DNA of 64,000 nt from Cyanidioschyzon merolae (lineage: Eukaryota), in the NCBI GenBank assembly GCA_000091205.1, contig AP006497.2. One strand, given 5' to 3'. A program made the translations under genes and the position numbers. The notes under the pieces are model-generated. The model saw nothing but the letters and a program-made list of their open reading frames with translations. It was not told the origin of the DNA and made no database searches. This document shows, piece after piece, positions 571 through 63,242 of the stretch (position 1 is the first letter of the stretch; the number at the start of each line of letters is the position of its first letter).

Positions 571-1270
571 ACGCAAGGTGTTGCGACTTCAGAATCGCGC
601 TATTGTCTTCCATGAGCGGGTCTGTCGACCGCCGTAGATGCCGGGTGTAGCGACGGATCATTTGCGACTGGTCTGGTGCGTGCCAGCGTTCGTGCTGCGG
701 GCCCTGCATCCTCGTTACCTGCAAAGCGACGCAGCATCTCTGGCCTCAGTACAAAGACGCCTTTCGAGAGCGTAATGGCATCAGGATGAGCTATGATCGC
801 AACATGAGCCGGTAGCCTTTCCGCCTGCAAAGACTCGGAGCAACACGAACGCGGTGCGACGGTTCAGCCCAGGGGCGCCGACGATTGCAGCGATCTGCGA
901 GCGACTCTTGCCTCTAGCATCTCAAGACGGAGACGTTTTCACACTGATGTCAGAGGAATGTTGCACGGGCGCGAGGAGAACCCGTACACGCCTGCGAAAA
1001 ACCCGAATGTCTATCTCGGGGGAACCGAACTTTCTCCCGTATCCACGTGTAATTCGTTCGATACATCGCCTGTGTTCATAAAAGATATCGTCATCTGCAG
1101 AGCGCACCTCCGCAGACGCCGCGGCAATTACATATCCCTCTGATCGTATGAGCACCGTACATGGATGAACCTCTTCGGCACCGGTGCCTATGAACAGCGC
1201 GTGCCCACGAGCTCTATGGCTACGCAGAACACGTGGCAGTGCCTGGTGGTGGCGACTTCGAGGGCCCTCC

Positions 1271-2270
1271 GGATACATTTGAAGGACTCGAAGGATCTCG
1301 ACTTTTATGGACGTGTTAGATCTAGGAGGACAGATCGACAGCTGTGCGCTGCTGGCGCGCGCCACGCGCTGGATACATATGCGGGACTGGAAGGAGCTCT
1401 ACGTTTATGGACAAGTTAGATCTAGGCGGCCAGATCGACAGCTATGCACTGCTGGCGCGCGCCACGCGCTGGATACATATGCGGGACTGGAAGGAGCTCT
1501 ACGTTTATGGACAAGTTAGATCTAGGCGGCCAGATCGACAGCTGTGCACTGCTGGCGCGCGCCACGCGCTGGATACATATGCGGGACTGGAAGGAGCTCG
1601 ACTTTTATAGACAAGTTAGATCTAGGCGGACAGATCGACAGCTGTGCACTGCTGGCGCGCGCCACGCGCTGGATACATATGCGGGACTGGAAGGAGCTCT
1701 ACTTTTATGGACGTGTTAGATCTAGGCGGACAGATCGACAGCTGTGCACTGCTGGCGCGCGCCACGCGCTGGATACATATGCGGGACTGGAAGGAGCTCT
1801 ACGTTTATGGACAAGTTAGATCTAGGCGGACAGATCGACAGCTGTGCACTGCTGGCGCGCGCCACGCGCTGGATACATATGCGGGACTGGAAGGAGCTCT
1901 ACTTTTATGGACGTGTTAGATCTAGGCGGACAGATCGACAGCTGTGCACTGCTGGCGCGCGCCACGCGCTGGATACATATGCGGGACTGGAAGGAGCTCT
2001 ACGTTTATGGACAAGTTAGATCTAGGCGGACAGATCGACAGCTGTGCACTGCTGGCGCGCGCCACGCGCTGGATACATATGCGGGACTGGAAGGAGCTCT
2101 ACTTTTATGGACGTGTTAGATCTAGGCGGACAGATCGACAGCTGTGCACTGCTGGCGCGCGCCACGCGCTGGATACATATGCGGGACTGGAAGGAGCTCT
2201 ACGTTTATGGACAAGTTAGATCTAGGCGGACAGATCGACAGCTGTGCACTGCTGGCGCGCGCCACGCGAT
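1271..2270. repeat. 100-bp minisatellite, 10 tandem copies, organised as a 200-bp higher-order dimer
   Basis: The unit ggatacatatgcgggactggaaggagctct(acgtttatggacaag / acttttatggacgtg)ttagatctaggcggacagatcgacagctgtgcactgctggcgcgcgccacgcgct repeats head to tail with period exactly 100. Two variants alternate strictly (ACGT..CAAG / ACTT..CGTG); the first copy (1271-1370) is degenerate. This produces the ladder of overlapping 91-aa ORFs in the six-frame track. Confidence 0.95.
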
Positions 2271-2328
2271 TCTCCATTGCATTATTTTGTTTTCCCGGCA
2301 AGGTGCCGTGTGTTGCAGCGTCTCTGCA

Positions 2329-3789
2329 ATGGAAACAGCAACGAGTTCACCGGAGCGAATGCTGGTGGGTTCTCTTATCCAGCTCATCCAAGCAGAGACA
2401 CGCCTGATTATGCTAGGATGGAAAGCGTCTGACCAAAATCAGCCGACGCTCCGAACCCAGCCCTTGCCGTGGTCGCCGAGGTCCGCTGCAGACGAGTTTG
2501 CGGAGCCGCTGCAGGCATACTTCGTCCTCGGCTGCGGGGGCGAACTGCGTGCGCCCGCTGCATGTGGCCGAGTCGTCGGCATCTACCACAGAGGCTTCGT
2601 GCGCTCCGTTCATGATAACGACGAGGTGCTCTATGCGGATGTGCGGCTCGTCGTTGTCCGTGAAGCCGGAAGCGCCCTCACCCCTGCCCTGGAACGAGCC
2701 TGGCTGCGTCTGGAAAACTGGGTTTCGCTCACAATAAAACAACAGAACGACCTCAACGCAGATGCGTCAACTGATGGCTGGCGGCGACGCTCAGAGTATT
2801 TTGAACGGATATGCCGAGACTTGACTCACCTTGCGCGAGAGCGAGACCGGCTTTTGAATCAGACCAGGGAGCGCTTGAACGTTGCGCGTCGATCACAGAT
2901 GCACCTGCGACGCGTCTTCGTCGAGGCCTTCGCTGGACACCTGCTCTGTTTCGAGTCATCTAGGCCGGATCAGGGTTTCGAAGGCGCATCTAGCGAAGCC
3001 GGTGCGAGTAAGTGCGATGCTGCATCCGCGTCTGAACCGGTGTTTTTTACTGGCCAACCGCTCGTGCTCTTGAACGACGCTCTCCCGAATGACCTGCCTG
3101 CTGATGGTGATGAGAAAGAGCATCATTCATGGCGTTGGCTCACGCACGATCTCTTTGGACGCTTTCGCATTCCATTGGGTAGACCGCCGGCGATCCAGTC
3201 GCTGGGCTGGCTCTATATTCCTGTGGTCGACGACGTCGGCAACGCGATTCGCGTTGAGGAGATTATTGAGGGGGATCCACCCACAACTGATCCGAAAACG
3301 AAGCGTTATTTGCATACGAAACCCATTCGTCTCGCACCGGACGTTGAGCGAGAGGTTCAGTTCCGGTTGACAGCAGCGAAACGCTGCTGCACGTGTATCC
3401 GCGAAACCGCGTGTGCCGGAGCGCCTGTGCAGCCGGATGCGAGCGGTACAGATGCCAGGTCTGCAAACCGACATGCCCTGCATTCCTGTGTAACATGCAG
3501 CGCGTGGGCACTAACCTGGCCCGGTGTCTTCGAAGTGACCAGTGATATGCTTCGAGGGTGGTCAAACTGGCAGGTCCACCAGAATCGTTCCGATGAGAAT
3601 ACGTTTACGTTTGCAGTGGACGGCACGGAGCGCGTGTATCGCGCTTGGTCGCGGCATGAACGCGATGTCATTGTGGCTTGTCTGCGCCACTGGCAAGAGG
3701 AGGCTCGCGCTGGTGCCCATGATCCGGGAGCCGCGTTGCCCGCAAGTGGAGTGCCCCTCAGCACTGGTTCAATGTTCCAAGACAAGTGA
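2329..3789 (+). CDS. Hypothetical protein (486 aa), no family recognised
   Basis: Long ORF continuing out of the minisatellite. The first ATG downstream of the repeat array (2329, METATSSPERMLVGSLIQLIQ...) gives a protein-like, non-repetitive sequence. No conserved motif identified. Confidence 0.45.
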   Translation: METATSSPERMLVGSLIQLIQAETRLIMLGWKASDQNQPTLRTQPLPWSPRSAADEFAEPLQAYFVLGCGGELRAPAACGRVVGIYHRGFVRSVHDNDEVLYADVRLVVVREAGSALTPALERAWLRLENWVSLTIKQQNDLNADASTDGWRRRSEYFERICRDLTHLARERDRLLNQTRERLNVARRSQMHLRRVFVEAFAGHLLCFESSRPDQGFEGASSEAGASKCDAASASEPVFFTGQPLVLLNDALPNDLPADGDEKEHHSWRWLTHDLFGRFRIPLGRPPAIQSLGWLYIPVVDDVGNAIRVEEIIEGDPPTTDPKTKRYLHTKPIRLAPDVEREVQFRLTAAKRCCTCIRETACAGAPVQPDASGTDARSANRHALHSCVTCSAWALTWPGVFEVTSDMLRGWSNWQVHQNRSDENTFTFAVDGTERVYRAWSRHERDVIVACLRHWQEEARAGAHDPGAALPASGVPLSTGSMFQDK

Positions 3790-13990: not shown

Positions 13991-14220
13991 CCATTCCCCC
14001 AGGGAGAGAGGCTCTCACGCTGGACCAGTCCCAGTCCAGCTTGCTCGTATGAAGTAGAGGTATGACTCTTCCCGTCTACATGACGCTCGACCAGTAACCA
14101 GAGCCTCAACGTCCATTTCCCCAGAGAGGGAGGGAGAGACTCTGACGCTGGACCAGTCCCAGTCCAGCATGCTCGTATGAAGTAGAGATATGACCGTTCC
14201 CGTCGACACGACGCTCGACT
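13991..14220. repeat. Tandem duplication, two copies of about 120 bp, in the HCF136/Mg-transporter intergenic region
   Basis: ccccagggagagaggctctcacgctggaccagtcccagtccagcttgctcgtatgaagtagaggtatgac… is repeated about 122 bp downstream with roughly 90 % identity. Confidence 0.85.
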
Positions 14221-14847: not shown

Positions 14848-16215
14848 ATGGCCGCTTACGTTTGGCGCTGTAAATTTGAGAGGTTTCCGTTTCGGAGCCT
14901 TCGGGAATGCCTCGATGAGGACAGCGGGAGCTGTACGTGTTGCTTTCGACGCTGGAGCTCGAGTGCTGAGTACTCGAGCGGCAGAGAGAGTTTTTCGGAA
15001 GATTGGAAAGACCGTACACGTGATGCATCGGAGTTGACGGGAAAGCGGAAGTACCCACGCGAGGCGCAGCCTGTTCGGATATGGACCAATCCCCGAGAAT
15101 ACGCGTTTTCAGAGTCATGGCTATCCAGCGATAGTGCCTTCGACTTGATTGCTATGGATGCGCAAGGGCGCCTAAGCACGTACCACTGGCACCGACGTCG
15201 GCTCCTACATGAGCTAAGTACGAACAGCTCAAGCACGCGACGAGCATCATTTACTGAAGCCGATTCCCGCAGCTCACCGGTACCGCATTCACAGTCGGAC
15301 TGGGAAAGCAGAGCCGCAATCTTGCAGTCACGTGATTTGCGGTTGCTGAATCCGATCTATCGAGACCAACCCGTATTTTTGATGCGTTCTGACCTGATTT
15401 TAGCTGCACTAGATCGTCATGTGTTGGCAATCATGCAACCAGGCAGACTTTTCCTGCAGCAACTAGCGTGCCCCGAATCGAAGTCTCTGAATGACCGCCT
15501 GATTCAGTGGATCCGCGTACGGCTGAGTGAGCACGGCAATGCATTCGAAGTGGTCGCTCTCGAAGCTCTGTTGGTGCTTGCCCACGAAACCCTCGCGCGA
15601 CGAGCGAATGTGGTCAAACTGGCACTTGAGGAGCGTCTTGCACCGTTCGCGAGTCACCCGAACAAGCGCTTACTCGAGGAAATCCGCGTGTTGAAACGTG
15701 AACTCGCCTCTGTGGCTACCGAGGCGCAAAACTACAGTGCCGCGTTGGAACGCGTGCTCGGTGACGATTTGCCGTGGCATATCGCTGAAATGACGCTTGT
15801 AGTGGCGTCATCTGGCGATATGCTGACAACGAGTAGCGATCTGGAATCGCTTTTGGAGAGCAGTATGCAAAAGTTTCGGGGCTGGAGCCGCCTCGCAAAC
15901 GAGTTATGCCATCGGGTCGGGAATGCGGAGCAGATTATTGAGTTGAGTTTAGCAGTCACGCAGATGCGCCTATGGTCGTTCGATGCCCTACTTCACCTCG
16001 TTACCGTGTCAGCGTTCCTGATAATGATTCCACCCGATTATTTCGGGATGAGCATCTGGATTCCGGTCTATGATCGTGTAGATATCTACTGGCCGTGGCT
16101 TCTTACTACGTTCCTTTTAATGTTGCTCAGTTTCGGATTCCTCGGGACTGGAATTTGGATACTTCGCAGAAAGAAGCTCCTGTTCCCTTTATTTAAATCG
16201 CGGGTAGATCATTAG
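14848..16215 (+). CDS. CorA/Mrs2-family magnesium channel with a GMS selectivity motif in place of GMN
   Basis: The C-terminus has the family architecture: an amphipathic helix, then TM1 ending …IMIPPDYFGMSIWIPVYD, a short loop, TM2 (WLLTTFLLMLLSFGFLGTGIWIL), and a basic tail RRKKLL. Compare plant MGT/Mrs2 …FGMNIPY. The Ser codon is AGC at 16051-16053. The N-terminal boundary is uncertain. Confidence 0.6.
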   Translation: MAAYVWRCKFERFPFRSLRECLDEDSGSCTCCFRRWSSSAEYSSGRESFSEDWKDRTRDASELTGKRKYPREAQPVRIWTNPREYAFSESWLSSDSAFDLIAMDAQGRLSTYHWHRRRLLHELSTNSSSTRRASFTEADSRSSPVPHSQSDWESRAAILQSRDLRLLNPIYRDQPVFLMRSDLILAALDRHVLAIMQPGRLFLQQLACPESKSLNDRLIQWIRVRLSEHGNAFEVVALEALLVLAHETLARRANVVKLALEERLAPFASHPNKRLLEEIRVLKRELASVATEAQNYSAALERVLGDDLPWHIAEMTLVVASSGDMLTTSSDLESLLESSMQKFRGWSRLANELCHRVGNAEQIIELSLAVTQMRLWSFDALLHLVTVSAFLIMIPPDYFGMSIWIPVYDRVDIYWPWLLTTFLLMLLSFGFLGTGIWILRRKKLLFPLFKSRVDH

Positions 16216-17319: not shown

Positions 17320-17670
17320 ACCCAAGTACGCGCACAGTCGTCCATGCAGTGTTCAGCACCTGGAGCGAACGCAGCAAATGAGACTCCAGCGCAAGTCACA
17401 TACACTAGTACGCGCACAGTGGTCCATGCAGTGTTCAGCGCTTGGAGCGAACGCAGCAAATGAGACTCCTGCGCAAGTCACATACACTAGTACGCGCACA
17501 GTGGTCCATGCAGTGTTCAGCGCTTGGAGCGAACGCAGCAAATGAGACTCCTGCGCAAGTCACATACACCAGTACGCGCACAGTGGTCCATGCAGTGTTC
17601 AGCGCTTGGAGCGAACGCAGCAAATGAGACTCCTGCGCAAGTCAGATACACAAGTAGGCACATGTAAGCG
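17320..17670. repeat. 82-bp minisatellite, about 4.3 copies
   Basis: The unit agtacgcgcacagtggtccatgcagtgttcagcgcttggagcgaacgcagcaaatgagactcctgcgcaagtcacatacact repeats with period 82, with starts near 17325, 17407, 17489 and 17571. The last copy is degenerate. This explains the repeated MLRSLQALNTAW… antisense ORFs. Confidence 0.9.
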
Positions 17671-25983: not shown

Positions 25984-26119
25984 GTGATTTATGCTACACA
26001 GGTTTCACTTGCGGTTGGTTGTTTCCACGGACGCGGCAGAGTAGATTTACGAGATTGCTTCAATTGTTCGCGAGTCGCCATCTGTCGCTACGCGATTCAC
26101 CGGCAGCATCGCGGAAAGT

Positions 26120-26460
26120 GTCCATATATGCTTGCAAGGAGGAACGCACACGCCGACATCGCGGATCGATGCTTTTGACGCCGTATCGATCGCGATGGTG
26201 ATGCGTCTTTCTGTGTGGAACATGTCCATATATGCTTGCAAGGAGGAACGTACACGCCGACATCGCGGATCGATGCTTTTGACGCCGTATCGATCGCGAT
26301 GGTGATGCGTCTTTCTGTGTGGAACATGTCCATATATGCTTGCAAGGAGGAACGTACACCCCGACATCGCGGATCGATGCTTTTGACGCCGTATCGATCG
26401 CGATGGTGATGCGTCTTTCTGTGTGGAACATGTCTTTGTATGCTTACAAGGAGTAGTGCA
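26120..26460. repeat. 104-bp minisatellite, about 3.3 copies, upstream of the phosphatase gene
   Basis: gtccatatatgcttgcaaggaggaacg(c/t)acacgccgacatcgcggatcgatgcttttgacgccgtatcgatcgcgatggtgatgcgtctttctgtgtggaacat occurs at 26120, 26224 and 26328, with a diverged partial copy at 26432. Confidence 0.9.
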
Positions 26461-42021: not shown

Positions 42022-42330
42022 GCACGCTTCCGGTTTTTTTTTTCATTGGCGAAACGTTTACGTAGGCCAGCGCTCTCTGATTCTGCGCTTTTTCTCTTCT
42101 TTTTGGGTTTTTTTTTCAGTGCGCGTTGAAGAATCCATCAACCCCCTACCTCCAAGTTACATGACCTATACTTCTTCTCGGGTCTTCTGGTCGTTTCATA
42201 CGTCTGGTCGTGTGTCAAGCCTGATGAAAGCGACAGCAATAGCGTCTTTACCGTTGGTACTGTTGCATCACGGAGACAGAACGGCGTTGCCGTACCACAG
42301 AGGGCGTCCGCTCGAGGCACGCTCTCGGTT
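42022..42330 (+). repeat. Dispersed element copy A (about 295 bp), bounded by 14-bp imperfect direct repeats
   Basis: Shares about 80 % identity over about 290 bp with 50267-50593. Flanked by gcacgcttccggtt (42022-42035) and gcacgctctcggtt (42317-42330). Internal T-rich tracts followed by cagtgcgcg. See findings. Confidence 0.8.
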
Positions 42331-44433: not shown

Positions 44434-46491
44434 GAATATACGGTTCCTATTGCAATCTAGTCCTAGATGTTGGCACCATAGCCTCTGTGACTCGCGATAG
44501 TCGCGTTGGAGTGCAGCTCCCTACTCCGGCTGCGTTCCGCGAAGCACAATGTTGAGCGGCAAGACGGTGCTGACGCCCGCAGCTGCGGCATGGAGCGCGC
44601 TGCAACAGAGGCGAACTGTGGAGAAAAGAACAGAAACGAAGCTCAAACGACCAACGAAATAGTACGGTCTATCGTCGTCTAGGGTCAACGGTAAGAGCGG
44701 GAAAGCTTTGCTTATCGTCGAAAGTTTACTTTATAGGCGGAAGGTCCCGCGAGTCCGACGAGTCTGCAGGGCACACGCTCTGTGCGACTCTGCAGTGTTT
44801 GTCGGGGTGCTTTAGTGAGAGAGCTACGCAGCTCGTCCGCAACGCGCTTTATCCTGGGACGACGAGCGGGTACGCTGCAACTAGGCATCATGCTGGTCAC
44901 CGGTTTATTCTAGTATGTCGCTTCGCGGTGCCACGGTGAGTACGTTCGTCTGCGCATCTTGCTGGCTCCTTCAACGATGATGGACTCCGATTCCATACTG
45001 AATGAACCACGCATCGAGCCGACGCACTCACTGGTATGGCAAAGCCGTTCTGTCCCTGCGATGCATCCGTACCAGCGCTATAAGCGTTACGGTGGGTACT
45101 CGAGGCACGCTCTCTGCGAACGATAGAACGTACGGAACGACCAGTACATCAGAAAGGAACTATAAGTTATAGAACCTGGAGACAGGGTGCAACAGCATGA
45201 TGGACGCTTTTTCGATCAACAATATCCACCCATCCGGCAATCTGCGATCCACGGTGAATGGGAATGTTTTGTCAGACCAGAAAAATCGTCCACCGGCACT
45301 GGAACCGGGCGCAGGGGCATATGCTCCGAGCCAGTGTTCAGTTCTCGAAGCGCTTCTGAACACGAACGTGAAGCGTTCTCAATAGAACTCTGGCGTTCAA
45401 ATGAATAGGTTCAATCAACGCAACGTCCGTGCACGACGGATCTTGCACGGCGACTCAGAATGATGACGACACAGGCCCGACGGTTCCTGCGAACCGGGCC
45501 GGGCACGAGCATGAGCACCCCACGTCCGTCGTCACTGAGCCCCGTTTGTTGTAGGGCATCGTATTCCAAGAGCGCCAGCCAAGAACGCTTTGCAGCACCT
45601 CTATCCAACCGGGGTATACCGGAAGCTGCTGCCGCAAACTGGTTGTTATGAATGAGGCACCATGGGGGAACAGGTCTCCGTCATACGCGTTATGGACTGA
45701 CGCGTCGGGTTCAATACGCGACTCGCGCTTCGATCCGAGAGCGCATACTGGCATCGGATAGCAGATGTGGAAGCGATTTGCTTTTTCATTCAGTAGAAAT
45801 GTATCTGTTTACGTGAAACGATGAGAGGAGGCGGCAAGAAGCGATCCAACTGGACATACGTGCCTGGTACCATTTTTGGCACAAATGTCCAACAGATGTC
45901 CTCGCGCAACGCACGCATCCATGGAGACACGTGTACCTTTCCGTGTGATTCTCATTGATTTCGAGATGGTGTTCATGCTTCTCGTTGGAAGCGTTGAATT
46001 CTCGTGTAAGTGATAGCGTGGCTGGCTATGCTTCGGCGTTTCAACCAGCCAGTAGTTATGGTTTAGCTTTCGTGCGCAGGTTCTAGCGGCGATCTCTGCA
46101 CATCGGAAAGCTCTGCGCTCCTCCAGCGAGAACCATGTACGGATTCAAGTCGCACTGTCTCGAGTCGGAACGCATGTTTCGTTACAGCAGGCGACGCAGG
46201 GCCAGGCCTAGCTCTCGCGGTTGCTTTGGTTGCGATATACATAGCGAGAAGTGCGCTGGTGTGTCGGTAAGTCTAAACCAGTAGGGGCTCTATCCGCGAA
46301 CGCATCTTTTCTTGGAGCATGCGTCGACCAGCGCATACTTACCGGAGAAGCGCGCGGGTCTTCTCGCGGCCCGTACTCGCACCCATCAGGTCGAAATCGT
46401 GTTACTGGGGCAGGATTCTGCGCCTGCGCAGCACCGTACAGATCCGGTGTTCTGAGTTCCCTCGTCAGGCTCTATGCGGTGCATACGGATG

Positions 46492-50266: not shown

Positions 50267-50593
50267 GCGTGCGCTCGTTGCCGGATTGCTTTTCTTTTTC
50301 ACTGACGAAACGTTTCCATAGGCCAGCGTTCTCCGATTATGCGCATTTTTCTTTTCTTACTTTTTTTTGTGTTTTTTTCAGTGCGCGGTGAGGTATCCAT
50401 CAAACGCCCTGCCTCCAAGTCACATTACCTATACTTCATCTCGGATATTCTGGTCGTTTCATACGCCCTATCGTGTGTGCCAAGTACCTGCCGAAAGCGA
50501 CAGCAATAGCGCCTACAGCGTCGGTGCGATCGCTGCACGGAGACAGAACGGCGTTGCCGTACCACAACGGGCGTGCGCTCGTTGCCGGATTGC
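50267..50593 (+). repeat. Dispersed element copy B (about 300 bp), bounded by a perfect 23-bp direct repeat
   Basis: gcgtgcgctcgttgccggattgc occurs at 50267-50289 and again at 50571-50593. The interior is homologous to 42036-42316. Confidence 0.85.
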
Positions 50594-58741: not shown

Positions 58742-60547
58742 CTTGCAATGGCCCTTCAGAAGGACGTCATCCTTGTGTGTGCACAGATGCTCGGCGTGCT
58801 GGAGATGCAAATCACCAGGGTGGAAGCACCCGGTGACTTGCAGCCAGATCCAGTGATGAATCCATAGGTCATACGAGAAATCGATCTGCACAGCTATAAC
58901 GCTCATTCGACTCGCAACTTGTCAGTGATTCTTTCGAAAGCGTCCCAGGAAAACGTGGACATGGAGTCGAAACCGCATGATACCCCAAAAACAAATCCGT
59001 TTCATAACACCAGACCTCTAGATCCATGGCGTGTCTGTGTCCGTCATCGATGCACTCAGCGACGAAGGATCGTTCAAAACTGGTCCGCGAAAAACGCTAC
59101 CGACGATTGTTCTAATTCACAGACGGAGACCCACTCATGTCCGATTGAGTGCGAGGTCCCTTGCTTGACCTCAGATTCGTGTGTCTCACGCGTGAACGCC
59201 AAGAAATACCCTGGTCAGGGGGCACCCCAAAGGCACGTGCAATCTGCATGGTGCACTTGTTGTAACGCTAGCGAAATCGTCGCTGGGATGCTTTCATGAT
59301 GTAGCCAGCGGTTCGTTGCCTTGTCTCTGAAGCGTTCTCGAGAAAGCTCCCGACGCTTTGTCCTTGGGTCTGATGGCTCGCATGCTTCGAGTATTCATTC
59401 TCGCTGGTGTGGAGCACCAAGCCGAATGGCATTTCGGTGCGAAGGGCCAGCATGATTCGAGCGTTTGTGCCGCTGCGCAGTATCAGCGGCAGAGGCAGTG
59501 TCCTCTGGAGGCCAGCACCTATCCGGCAACGAAGAATGCCACACAAGTGAATGACAGCACTTGATCGTATTCCAAGATATGCTTTCGTGCGCTCTGGGTG
59601 AACCGTGCGCCGCCCAGGGAGAACGCTCATGACGCGCGTACTCGCTCCCTCGCTCACGACAATTCTGGAGGCCGATGCTTGCTGATCGGAGGCGAGGCGC
59701 CCGCTGCGTCTCGACAAGTGCCAAAACCTTGGGTCGTAGGCTGCACAGGGAAACATATTGAGGTTCGCTTGGCGCCGCTTCAAACGGAAACGGCACGTCT
59801 AGTGCGTTGAAATATGTGCAAGGAGCTTGGTGCTTCTGAAAAGACGCGAACTCGATTGCGCTTTGTACTGTCGCTGGTGCTCAGCGCAAACGGGAGCACG
59901 TAGCATACGCAGCATATTGTTGCAAGATGAGGGTGCTCGGCACAGGTCTATGGCGGGTTCGGGAACGGCCACCATGCTGTGGTGACCAAACTCATGACGA
60001 GGCGTTCTGTTGAGGCTTGTAGACTTGGCTGGCCTCCTTGAAATGTTTTTTCCTTCCTGCGATTCTCTACAATATCGAATTATGGAATACCATGATGCCT
60101 CATAGATTGTCCGGGAAAATCGGAACCATCATCAGACATATGGATATATGCAGCGCTCCAGCTGCTCTGCAAGTGCTGAACCGTACCGTCGCAGTGCCTT
60201 GCAGCACCAAGCACGAGTCGAAACCTGCTTCCAATGGTCACTGTCCTTTTTCCAGTTTACGACTGCAACGATTTACGATCATGTCCACATTGAGTACGAA
60301 AGCATTCCCGCCGAACGTTCGCTGGATGCAAAGCTGTTGGACGCTCCGAGAGCACGGGAACTTTCCATATCTTGATCGGGGCGCTGAGCGCTCGGTGCAG
60401 AGACAGCAAGCGCACGTGTTTGCTGGTTGAATCGCACCGCGGAAAGCCTCTCACCTTGCATTGCCTCGCTATCTGAGGTTCGTTCAGCTCACCGTGCACC
60501 ATCTCTTGCATCCGTCACTGTTTCATACGCTTTGCTCAACCGGTTTC

Positions 60548-60566
60548 AGTGTGTGTGTGTGTGTGT
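60548..60566. repeat. (GT)n microsatellite
   Basis: gtgtgtgtgtgtgtgtgtc. Confidence 0.85.
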
Positions 60567-63242
60567 CTTGTCTTGAACCCAGCGTTGGGTATCGCACGGA
60601 ATCGATTCCTGCATTCATTGTATGCGCTTGTCAAAGGCAGAGGAGTGCAGTCCTCACGTTGGATCGTACGTCCAAGGAAATCGACAACCAGGAGAGACGG
60701 CACGACTTGTTAGTCATCTCTTTTTTCAACGCATGGGACAAGGTAGCGAATGCGTGCTGCTTGCCACAGTAGAATCGCGGTCATTGGCGAACCTTGCGCT
60801 GTCTCATGTACGACCGGCCAAGATCGTCCACATGAGTCATGTAGATGCTCGTGCACGCTCGGAACGAAGCGTATTTTGCATCCCGCCTCTGCTCGATACG
60901 CTACGCAGAGCGTCGAGATACCTCCTCACGCCAGCACTCGTCTTGTACGCTCGCCTCTGGGCGCTCATCATGTATGGTGCCCAATGATGCAGGACCCTGG
61001 ATTCATTGTACAGCTTCATCTGCTTTCTTTTTCATCCATTCGGCTGCGGTCTCTTGATTTAGAGGTACGGCATCGGGCGTGACGCACATGAGCTGGGGAT
61101 CCACGCCCCCAGCAAAGTCTCCCTCTTTATCTACCTTGAACAGTTTAGAAAAAGCTACGTTGCCTGACTGAGGTCGAGGTTTCACAAGAATGCCTGCAGA
61201 TGCATCGTCCTTCCGTATCTATCGTCACTGTGAACCGCTTTCCAATTCAGTCCGCGAACGAGAAAACCTGGCATGAGCTCCGCCAATGTCTTTTGCGAGC
61301 TTGTTCGAAGGCTCCTCGCTTGTTCGTGCGGACGAGCCGCCGCCATGACGGAGGCCATTCACTACATTCCACAGGTATCCATTGGATTACAAAAGGACTT
61401 GATGTGGCATACAGAGACCGTCTCGAATAGACGCTTGGAGAAGCTGTGGCACTCGCACTGGGTAAGCGAGTCTGCGTTGCTCTAAAGGGATCTGTACGAG
61501 ACAAAATTGCAGCGCAAGACTGAAGCAGGCTAGGCATCACGCTCCAATGATCCTTCGCGTAAGACGTCCGTCTGTCCGAAGCCCACACCAACACCATGAG
61601 CTCGGACGATCTGAAGCAACGCTCGCTCTCGTTGCAACATCTGTGCTGAACTCGTTACCACGCCGAGCTCTTCCTGCATCAGCTCCTCATTTGTGTCCAT
61701 CGACACGCTGAGGGTGCCTTGTAGCAGTGCCCCCGTTCTGTGCCAGTGCGTTGAGCAACGCTCGGGTACACCGCTCACGGGGCATACCGCATGAAGCGCA
61801 CGAGACTGACCCTCGATATCGTTTACGAGGTTGGTTTCTTGTTGCTGGCGCCTGCGCTTTCCAAGTCCTGACCGGTGACGTGCGCCACGACGACGCGTCA
61901 CCGTATTCCAGGAAGCTTCTGCGCGAATCTCTGATCCTATCATGAGGCTGTATTGCGTCTCCTGCTCCCAAGCATCGGTGTATGAACGACGTTTGGATTG
62001 CATTATGCCAAACGAATGAGGATAGCTAAGAGCCTTACGGCGGTACCTCGTACAAACAGTTGGTTGATGAGATGCTTCGATTCGAGGGAAGCGAAGCGAG
62101 AATTCCTCGATTAGGAAGCGATCCAAATCCTGATTGCGTGCTGCATGTTTCGTTATCACGTGTGCGAACGACTCTTCTCTTGATCACTGGGCGAAAGCAT
62201 CACGTGCGGCCATAGAGAATACGACTTTGACCGGACTGAACCTGGAGCCTGAAGGCGCCATACAGGGCAGCTCGACGCTCATCACAGCTTCGTGCTCCAT
62301 GACGGCTTTTGAGTGATAAAAAGCGACGTAATCCAAGAGCGAACCAGATGAATGTGGGAATCAGAAGCCGCGAAGAGTACCTCGACGAACCGCGAGCTCT
62401 TGATCGCTGCTACCCGAACGGTAATTTGGATACATCCACCCGATAGAATCGCCAGTCGCGTTGATCTTGTCGTCAATACCGCGTTTCGCTTCGTAACGAC
62501 CAAATACTTGTCCCGCTTTGAGTCCTCGTGTTCGGCTCTAGCGTTCCTCCCCAATAAACTACCATTGGCTGAGACGAACCTCCGTCCATACTGCCAAAAG
62601 CGTTCGCAGTCCATTTCGAAATCGATTGTAGGCTGAGCAACGCACGACGGTCTCCGACAGAAACACCCGTTTTTGTCTGTCCATCGGTGTTTCTTCATCG
62701 CCGCTGGTATCAAAGGGAGAAAGCTTTACATGATGTGGCTGTTTTGTTCGTATTTTTAACAAGAAAACGTATGCAGTGGAATGGATTCACGACGAGGCAG
62801 CCGTTCAGATTCCGTTTGTAAAGTTCTGTTTTGCGTAAGCGCCCTTCGGGGTAACGACAAAGAGACGATTGGTTCATCCACCTGCTAACCATCGAATGTC
62901 TGAGTCGCAGAACCCAAGAGGCTTTTCTCGCAAGCTACCAATGACATTGTAACGTACTTCACCGACTCTTCTGTAAATCCACGGACATGCCTTCCATGCT
63001 GCACAGGAGAGAATCCAGTGAAAGCCGAGAATCACCAGCTGCTACAAGCATTCCAAAGTGCACCTCTCACAGAGCACCGTTGTGGGACGACCACCAGTAC
63101 CAACAACAGCTCTTTCCGCCAAGCGCTACGAGCACGTTTCCCGAGCTTCACTCCGAACTTTGGACAGGGTTTTTGCGGTGCTCGCGTATCAGGCGCTCAC
63201 TCTAGTACATCGACCAGTTCGCGTCTAATACCGAGTACCTCC

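Follow-up and report, generated by a model that had tools for sequence, protein, structure and literature searches.

Intergenic repeats of Cyanidioschyzon merolae as probable retrocopies of a LINE 3' tail, and their relation to a Fanzor1 element

Among SINE/LINE pairs with a common 3' tail are UnaSINE1/UnaL2 of the eel and the SINE/CR1 pair of the tortoise. Headless LINE derivatives are known from trypanosomatids (RIME/ingi, NARTc/L1Tc, and SIDER), and 5'-truncated L1 copies with microhomology junctions provide a further point of comparison. Target-site duplications (TSDs) of variable length and unrelated sequence, together with an A tail and anchored 5' truncation, form the classical signature of target-primed reverse transcription (TPRT).

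The genome of C. merolae is fully finished and comprises 16.5 Mb. Nozaki et al. (2007, PMC1955436) described 26 class I non-LTR retrotransposons in this alga, as well as a 3.2-kb element that has a WSV486-like ORF and occurs in 253 copies; their description of the LINEs comprises neither 3' UTR-only derivatives nor TSDs of such derivatives. Bao and Jurka (2013, PMC3627910) catalogued the Fanzor1 family CMe-1A (3,169 bp, ∼150 copies) and TE-N2_CMe (∼635 bp, ∼70 copies), the latter being equivalent to the 5' 635 bp of CMe-1A. CMe-1A is probably the 253-copy, 3.2-kb element of PMC1955436. Both CMe-1A and TE-N2_CMe were left without a class by Bao and Jurka, with their TSDs undetermined, and the published consensus begins after a T-run (PMC3627910). 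We note that CMe-1A makes up roughly 3 to 5% of the genome and is the most abundant C. merolae repeat family.

The DNA analyzed here is a 64,000-nucleotide stretch of C. merolae 10D, referred to below as the window, with long intron-less ORFs on both strands and a G+C content of ∼56%. The original prediction reported two look-alike intergenic segments of ∼290 bp on the same strand, and both were recovered with all of their landmark blocks at 81 to 83% identity. Specifically, copies A and B are 81.8% identical over 292 bp (BLASTN, E = 3e-76), with values of 83% in a comparison with an orthologous contig, 81% as mean column identity (MAFFT), and ∼80% in the pairwise module table. With the family model, nhmmer retrieved A at E = 2e-73 and B at E = 3e-80. 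The perfect 23-bp repeat around B and the 14-bp repeat with two mismatches around A were likewise as described. A profile built from A and B retrieved, at ∼45.0 to 45.3 kb, an additional copy, C (nhmmer, E = 3e-26), that was absent from the original prediction. The features of the three copies are as follows.

42036..42316, minus strand: copy A of clade I, a "solo" retrocopy (∼281 bp) of the 3' module of the LINE
42022..42035, no strand: TSD of copy A, tail-adjoining, GCACGCTTCCGGTT (boundary ambiguous by 2 nt, as the final two T residues are shared with the T-run)
42317..42330, no strand: TSD of copy A at the 5' end of the element, GCACGCTCTCGGTT, with 12/14 bases equal to its partner
42275..42297, minus strand: the most conserved core of the module in A, GACAGAACGGCKTTGCCRTACCA (plus-strand letters), with a small hairpin ACGGC/GCCGU
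50290..50570, minus strand: copy B of clade I, likewise a solo retrocopy (∼281 bp) of this 3' module
50267..50289, no strand: TSD of copy B, tail side, GCGTGCGCTCGTTGCCGGATTGC, 23 bp, exact
50571..50593, no strand: TSD of copy B, 5' side, GCGTGCGCTCGTTGCCGGATTGC, 23 bp, exact
44625..45288, plus strand: copy C, a diverged, full-length copy of TE-N2_CMe type, clade II of the module, inverted relative to A and B
50542-50564 (B) and 45032-45054 (C, opposite strand): the module core in the other two window copies, by pattern match

Copy A lies 589 bp from the stop of an MFS/sucrose-transporter ORF (42919) and copy B lies 782 bp from the cohesin-SA start (49485), in agreement with the ∼0.6 and ∼0.8 kb given previously. 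The ORF adjoining B, of 997 amino acids, encodes a protein with 100% identity to the cohesin subunit SA of C. merolae 10D. Copy C is found ∼190 bp upstream of the MFS/sucrose-transporter start codon, between that start and the cohesin stop; thus, three consecutive intergenic regions each carry one copy of the module. Together, the three copies span 8.6 kb of the window, and the remaining 55 kb holds none.

On the minus strand, which is the informative one and the opposite of that used in the original prediction, copy A terminates in ...CAATG-A(10) and copy B in ...CAGTG-A(5)GA(4), and each terminus directly adjoins one copy of the bracketing repeat. An A-rich end that abuts a bracket suggested a retroposon with target-site duplications. 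The terminal A-run of copy A is the complement of 42034-42043, its internal A-rich linker is the complement of 42092-42117, and its 5' end (RNA sense, minus strand) is CTCGAGCGGACGCC at 42316. The T-rich run followed by CAGTGCGCG on the plus strand is the complement of this internal linker, CGCGCACTG-A(n). Neither A nor B contains terminal inverted repeats (TIRs), and no pairs of LTRs were seen either. Family homology in copy B runs ∼11 nt into the 5'-side TSD, up to 50581. The first 11 nt of the B duplication (GCGTGCGCTCG) resemble the terminus of the element (GCGTCGGCTCG); expressed in RNA sense, the inner 11 nt of the duplication (CGAGCGCACGC) resemble the first bases of the element (consensus, CGAGCCGACGC). 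The bracket of copy A does so more weakly.

Locus by locus, the sequence left of the T-run recurs right after the other end of the copy, and this sequence differs between loci. TSDs of 9 to 23 bp were found at 12 loci, five of them with no more than one mismatch.

Copy B: 23/23 bases
L063: GCGCGGATGCAGGT, 14/14
L053 (a 774-bp copy): CGCGTGATCGAT, 12/12
L003: ACGCGCAGGC(A/G)TT, 12/13
L005/L065: CGCCATGTA, 9/9
Copy A: 12/14
Six further loci: 10 to 15 bp, with 1 to 4 mismatches

Because the brackets are locus specific in both sequence and length, they represent target-site duplications, as the original prediction had offered for one of its two options. The other option was that of terminal direct repeats or of a circular or tandem monomer present 1.08 times, and it is contradicted by brackets that differ at every locus. 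A preferred target site was also proposed, but the TSDs have no common motif. The relatedness of the A and B brackets to each other (GCRYGC..YCGG) does not extend to the family, as brackets elsewhere are unrelated sequences. Some short copies (c14 and c22) lack a tail-adjoining TSD because their tail abuts a CMe-1A fragment. At other 5' junctions, microhomologies of 2 to 5 nt are visible.

The core 23-mer GACAGAACGGCKTTGCCRTACCA matches all three window copies, with 0 matches expected by chance. A scan with this 23-mer matched 85 stretches of JGI metagenomes and no viral contig. These 85 stretches contained 116 to 119 copies by nhmmer, corresponding to ∼44 distinct loci when clustered with their flanks at 96% identity. 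The copy number and length spectrum therefore refer to metagenome contigs of the same or a closely related alga that were picked by an exact 23-mer, with the ascertainment bias that this entails. The family is thus not confined to the two segments first noticed, nor do its members belong to one larger duplicated block, as their flanks are unrelated. One metagenome contig (ENA; L001) is 99.4% identical to window positions 31910-52387 and holds A, B, and C; another metagenome locus (L070) shows the three-copy spacing of the window and is likewise orthologous. Hence, two independent assemblies of the same species both carry all three copies, and only filled alleles were retrieved. A protein-database search with a spurious ORF spanning copy A returned the orthologous contig L001 only and no paralogous copies. 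One cluster (c33) was rejected as a locus of its own, as it looks like an assembly chimera of two others (c35 and c20).

In every copy, homology begins at the same variable-length T-run (model position ∼32-40), while the opposite end varies. The lengths observed were ∼0.29, 0.5 to 0.9 (510 to 860 bp), >1.1, >1.4, >2.2, and >2.7 kb, where values of >1.1 kb and above are lower bounds set by contig ends that cut those copies. Roughly a dozen copies are solos of ∼290 to 300 bp like A and B. Pairwise identities of the module split the family into two clades that are ∼60 to 65% identical to each other. Clade I contains A, B, other solos, truncated copies, and copies bearing a reverse transcriptase (RT), with 75 to 91% identity among its members; for example, B and the module of the RT-bearing copy c36 (L060) share 88% identity. 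Clade II contains copy C, elements of ∼640 bp, elements of ∼3.1 to 3.2 kb, and two solos. Copy C is about 60% identical to A and B and belongs to a different sub-lineage. Across 35 aligned copies, a core of 23 to 31 nt is nearly invariant.

In one set of long copies (c12, c24, c36, and c38), the strand with the A tail at its end encodes an RT. The protein matches Pfam RVT_1 (E = 1.5e-18) as well as the R2 and LINE-1 ORF2p structures (E = 1e-14 to 1e-9, PDB sequences); among its features are the motifs FIDFQKAFDTVPHEA and LLADDVVLLA and, at the C terminus, a CCHC knuckle. It is 84 to 86% identical to C. merolae 10D proteins annotated as "retroelement, alive," and the RT-bearing long copies fit the 26 non-LTR retrotransposons of PMC1955436. 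The RT ORF stops ∼430 to 620 nt before the tail; the ∼285-nt unit is thus purely 3' UTR. A LINE from another metagenome (L087), with an RT identity of 51%, also carries the start of the module downstream of the RT (E = 5e-10). No intact endonuclease domain (APE or RLE) was found in the sampled LINE copies, where all that is retained is a vestigial ASWNIxGI motif at the N terminus with a K-rich stretch after it; Exo_endo_phos domains are present in distant RT homologues.

Taken together, A and B are SINE-like or 5'-truncated retrocopies of a LINE 3' UTR. Very probably, they are independent insertions of a short non-autonomous retroposon that corresponds to the final ∼285 nt of a C. merolae LINE and comprises 3' UTR sequence and the A-rich tail. 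The suggestion of a dispersed non-autonomous mobile element is upheld by the ∼44 loci, the A tails, the TSDs, and the long RT-bearing relatives. On the basis of what is established for LINEs, we infer that A and B arose by TPRT and were mobilized in trans. The RT of the LINE would bind RNA carrying the 3' module, and the target DNA would be nicked. Synthesis of cDNA would then start at the A-rich tail and end, or be joined, at a very reproducible point (CCTCGAG...), and a staggered break of the second strand 9 to 23 bp away would give rise to the flanking duplication. The 5' junction of copy B may have formed where the target by chance resembled the 5' end of the element, such that joining of the cDNA was guided by microhomology; this would account both for B having the longest TSD and for its element-like bracket.

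The 5' end of the short copies deserves separate consideration. About a dozen solos begin within ∼3 nt of CCTCGAG, a shared start that is not predicted by simple random 5' truncation. The solos fall into at least four sub-lineages (by distance clustering only, with no bootstrap), each grouped with a longer or RT-bearing relative with which it shares diagnostic variants. Solos scattered over several sub-lineages indicate that the short form was made repeatedly rather than from one SINE master. The short form may stem from a discrete RNA of ∼285 nt that is started internally or produced by processing; alternatively, it may mark a strong RT stop or a hotspot of truncation.

In a sister species whose cohesin is 59% identical, the syntenic locus has kept the gene order but is too diverged for a base-level comparison. 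None of its three spacers contains a copy of the module (best E = 0.7), and its cohesin-MFS spacer measures ∼400 bp versus 2,059 bp in the window. The absence is consistent with lineage-specific insertions. It also bears on an alternative in which retroposon-derived copies have been co-opted as promoters, terminators, or other cis-elements of the neighboring genes. The placement of C close to the MFS start codon, of A downstream of the MFS gene, and of B upstream of cohesin would suit such a role, as would the fixation of all three copies in two further assemblies. Nevertheless, the sister species has the same genes without the copies, and nothing indicates that A, B, and C are better conserved than the rest of the family. 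We therefore regard co-option as very improbable.

That A and B are genes of a small structured noncoding RNA (ncRNA) family, snRNA- or snoRNA-like or novel, is very unlikely. The nearly invariant core in 35 diverged copies is compatible with such genes, as are a few short helices with G-U or compensatory variation. In addition, the A-tail strand folds slightly better than its complement (−7.1 versus −4.7 kcal/mol overall and −19.4 versus −6.6 kcal/mol for clade II; RNAalifold). However, the consensus fold is weak in energy and contains only 20 pairs in ∼330 columns, and the core hairpin is lost in the distant LINE relative. Given the few helices and this loss, the claim of a structured RNA was dropped. 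Neither at gathering thresholds nor with a cutoff of E ≤ 10 did Rfam assign a known ncRNA, and no tRNA-like gene was predicted by ARAGORN. The same searches (ARAGORN on the window; Rfam at both settings) revealed no Pol III-type head (tRNA, 7SL, or 5S). Moreover, this sequence also forms the 3' UTR of RT-encoding elements, and the copies have TSDs and A tails and are 60 to 90% diverged, as expected of decaying repeats.

Mobility at the DNA level appears just as implausible, whether as a MITE, as a Crypton-like element bounded by terminal direct repeats, or as a monomer, rolling-circle or circular, inserted as 1.08 units. Both copies are bracketed by direct repeats, the repeat of B overlaps element-like sequence, and PMC3627910 lists the related CMe-1A and TE-N2_CMe as "classification unknown, no TIRs." Still, A and B have no TIRs, and the bracket measures 9 to 23 bp with a new sequence at every locus, unlike TSDs of fixed length. 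One end is always an A-run, the length variants are anchored at that end, and the long members encode an RT.

The possibility raised previously of an introner-like element, which would carry splice signals and make introns, has almost nothing left to commend it. The plus strand does contain a long pyrimidine run followed by CAG, but this apparent splice acceptor is the complement of the internal A-rich linker (CACTG-A(n)) and tail and is missing from clade II, including copy C. All three window copies are intergenic, none of the copies was observed in use as an intron, the 35-copy alignment contains no conserved 5' splice site or branch site, and the variable-length TSDs and RT-bearing relatives point to retroposition. 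The presence of introns in only 0.5% of C. merolae genes (PMC1955436) also counts against an introner. Finally, three copies within 8.6 kb and none in the other 55 kb might be read as the outcome of a segmental duplication on a local scale or as what is left of a larger duplicated block, but this reading is refuted by the flank comparison: similarity ends exactly at the brackets, the flanks are unrelated, and each copy has its own TSD. In addition, A, B, and C come from different sub-lineages, and the family occupies ∼44 unrelated loci. Overall, the original interpretation stands with respect to a multicopy mobile element with TSDs, and it is not supported with respect to an introner, a splice acceptor, RNA genes, terminal repeats, and a circular monomer.

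With A and B regarded as retrocopies of a LINE 3' UTR, copy C provides the connection to previously catalogued repeats. It is 75.8% identical to the published CMe-1A consensus over positions 4-636 and is, as judged by this alignment, a full TE-N2_CMe. Its tail is a short A-run at ∼45275-45288, and inspection of its flanks revealed no recognizable TSD. The CMe-1A consensus starts with CGATGACAAAACGTTT..., just past the T-run. The published CMe-1A consensus and CMe-1 protein correspond to the same element and ORF as the long clade II copies; the clade II ORF encodes the same protein as Fanzor1 "CMe-1," including ...VGADPGNTNIITIA... and ...FVNRDFNAAINI.... Pfam, NCBIfam, and PDB sequence and profile searches detected no TnpB/Fanzor homology of the long clade II ORF, and its identification as Fanzor relies on the CMe-1 protein and the CMe-1A consensus as published. 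None of the three window copies contains the Fanzor ORF. Copies A and B align to CMe-1A positions 84-256 only, at ∼78%, and cluster with LINE copies; accordingly, they are relatives rather than members of TE-N2_CMe/CMe-1A.

All clade II copies inspected have a T-run of 5 to 13 nt between the flank and consensus position 1, and a perfect TSD of 9 bp flanks one clade II solo. These two features suggest that A-tailed retroposition took place on the antisense strand with respect to Fanzor. When mapped to the full consensus, clade II lengths are discrete (∼0.26 to 0.3, 0.64, and 3.1 to 3.2 kb); an earlier reading of them as a continuous 5'-truncation series was withdrawn on the basis of this mapping. 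No clean TSDs were found around TE-N2-type copies, full-length CMe-1A copies, or composites of a LINE tail and CMe-1A. In these composites, the Fanzor core (∼640-3169) is joined, in the other orientation, to LINE-type elements of clade I. The CMe-1A position that adjoins the A tail of the LINE is ∼640-670 at five loci and 2934 at three, and the length of the LINE portion is variable. The composites could have arisen as template-switch chimeras, by 3' transduction, or by recurrent insertion. In view of the discrete clade II lengths, the lack of clean TSDs, and the composites, we treat mobilization of Fanzor1 by a LINE tail as a hypothesis.

The module that A and B share with CMe-1A hints at such LINE-tail mobilization of CMe-1A. 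An association of Fanzor1c with LINEs has been reported at the classifier level (Jiang et al. 2023, PMC10530073). A broader proposal, to which we give somewhat less than even weight, is that the ∼290-nt module acts as a portable retrotransposition tail beyond the LINE itself. TE-N2_CMe and CMe-1A would then be LINE-dependent retroposons, with the RNA-guided nuclease gene antisense to the RNA intermediate, and the CCTCGAG start would reflect an RNA processing or start site that yields a dedicated mobile RNA of ∼285 nt.

For annotation, three intergenic repeats of a model red alga can be recorded as ordinary retroposon insertions, and an introner and a new RNA gene can be removed from consideration. 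Repeats that were catalogued without a class receive one: A-tailed, TSD flanked, and derived from a LINE tail. Because CMe-1A and TE-N2_CMe start with the same kind of module, the spread of a eukaryotic TnpB-like nuclease gene becomes directly testable. What is new here is modest, as the LINEs and related repeats of this genome had already been catalogued; it consists of the class assignment and of the module common to a Fanzor1 element.

Compared with the "retroelement, alive" LINEs of C. merolae, A and B correspond to the 3'-terminal ∼285 nt; they lack coding sequence and have a reproducible internal start. With respect to CMe-1A, its first ∼290 bp represent the clade II version of the module common to A and B, whereas the versions in A and B are those of clade I, which is linked to the LINE, and have an additional A-rich linker inside. 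The position of the module differs as well, as it forms the 3' end of an RT element in the family of A and B, while in CMe-1A it lies at the 5' end and antisense to the Fanzor ORF. A and B resemble the SINE/LINE pairs in their short size, discrete 5' end, LINE-derived 3' tail, A-rich terminus, and TSDs, and presumably also in trans-mobilization by the RT of a partner LINE. In contrast to canonical SINEs, the short copies of the module have no detected Pol III head and do not form a lineage apart from the LINE copies. Like RIME/ingi, NARTc/L1Tc, SIDER, and truncated L1, they are LINE-only sequences that are non-autonomous or dead on arrival, with variable TSDs and 5' microhomologies. RIME joins both ends of its LINE, whereas A and B contain the 3' end only. 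Relative to the truncated L1/RIME group, the truncation point of the A/B type is unusually sharp, falling within ∼3 nt in roughly a dozen copies.

The original prediction held that the element was present twice in the window; a third copy, diverged and inverted, had been overlooked. This copy C lies upstream of the MFS/sucrose-transporter gene, its end ~190 bp from the start codon, and belongs to the type of TE-N2_CMe, the first ~635 bp of the published Fanzor1 element CMe-1A.

44625-45288, RNA sense +: copy C, full-length, diverged TE-N2_CMe-type element, inverted

Elsewhere in the window, at 60338-60885, translation of the minus strand gives a weak match (31-33% identity, E = 1.5e-9) to the portion of CMe-1, the Fanzor1 protein of CMe-1A, that contains RuvC; the stretch has no intact ORF. 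It probably represents an ancient Fanzor-type element, now decayed, from a family other than that of CMe-1.

The module linked to LINEs (clade I) and the CMe-1A element recur together in the metagenome stretches (L-numbers). In these composites, a clade I LINE-type element runs with its A tail directly into CMe-1A, and the junction falls at one of two positions.

Junctions between LINE tails and CMe-1A, by CMe-1A consensus position
Type a, position ~640-670: L026:1030-3650, L002:6150-8680, L080:2400-5010, L032, and L036
Type b, position 2934: L064:2680-2930, L048:6940-7175, and L078:9790-10015

The length of the LINE part differs between loci, and all composites terminate at the CMe-1A 3' terminus, GAA(A/C)GGCG. 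A search for target-site duplications around the composites found none. A Fanzor-type copy with a hybrid end was retrieved at L074:3549-6361 (cluster c17; also L020 and L061). LINE-type (clade I) sequence, with the A-rich linker, forms the outermost ~90 nt of this copy, and the remainder is CMe-1A-like with an internal deletion of ~560 bp. The Fanzor reading frame of this copy is the longest open one seen, at 513 amino acids, and comprises the C-terminal part only. The hybrid end suggests that LINE-type and CMe-1A-type elements exchange tails.

Two other metagenome copies are peculiar. Within the clade II module (linked to TE-N2_CMe/CMe-1A) at L011:2081-2391 (cluster c30), an (ATCC)n microsatellite has expanded to ~9 units at a site where other copies carry a single ATCCATCC. 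The left flank of L019 (cluster c33) is that of cluster c35 and its right flank that of cluster c20, as judged against L053 and L078; L019 is probably a metagenome assembly chimera joined through the repeat.

The window also contains three intergenic minisatellites, with unit identities of 95-97% and no period divisible by three.

1271-2268: 100 bp x 10, directly upstream of a long ORF
17325-17656: 82 bp x 4, directly upstream of a long ORF
26119-26453: 104 bp x 3.2, flanked by two ORFs

In addition, an 86-nt direct-repeat pair (14006-14091 and 14134-14219; 91% identical, 128 bp apart) lies just upstream of an ORF at 14848.

At the syntenic locus of a sister species (L088, L089, and L090), no module copies were found in the spacers. 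The order of the genes for an RRM protein, Trm11-like protein, SNase, cohesin, MFS transporter, and PABA synthase is conserved with the window, whereas the spacers are much shorter (cohesin-MFS, ~400 bp versus 2,059 bp in the window).

Turning to the LINE partner, the sampled C. merolae copies (L083:2000-2560 and protein record P0024) retain only ASWNIxGI, the first motif of the APE-type endonuclease; next come a lysine-rich stretch and, after it, the reverse transcriptase (RT). The endonuclease domain seems to have been deleted in this lineage. A distant LINE from another metagenome (L087:12330-12608), with an RT identity of only 51%, carries the start of the 3' module ~0.8 kb downstream of its RT, so that the module is old. 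The small core hairpin of the module is not conserved in this LINE.
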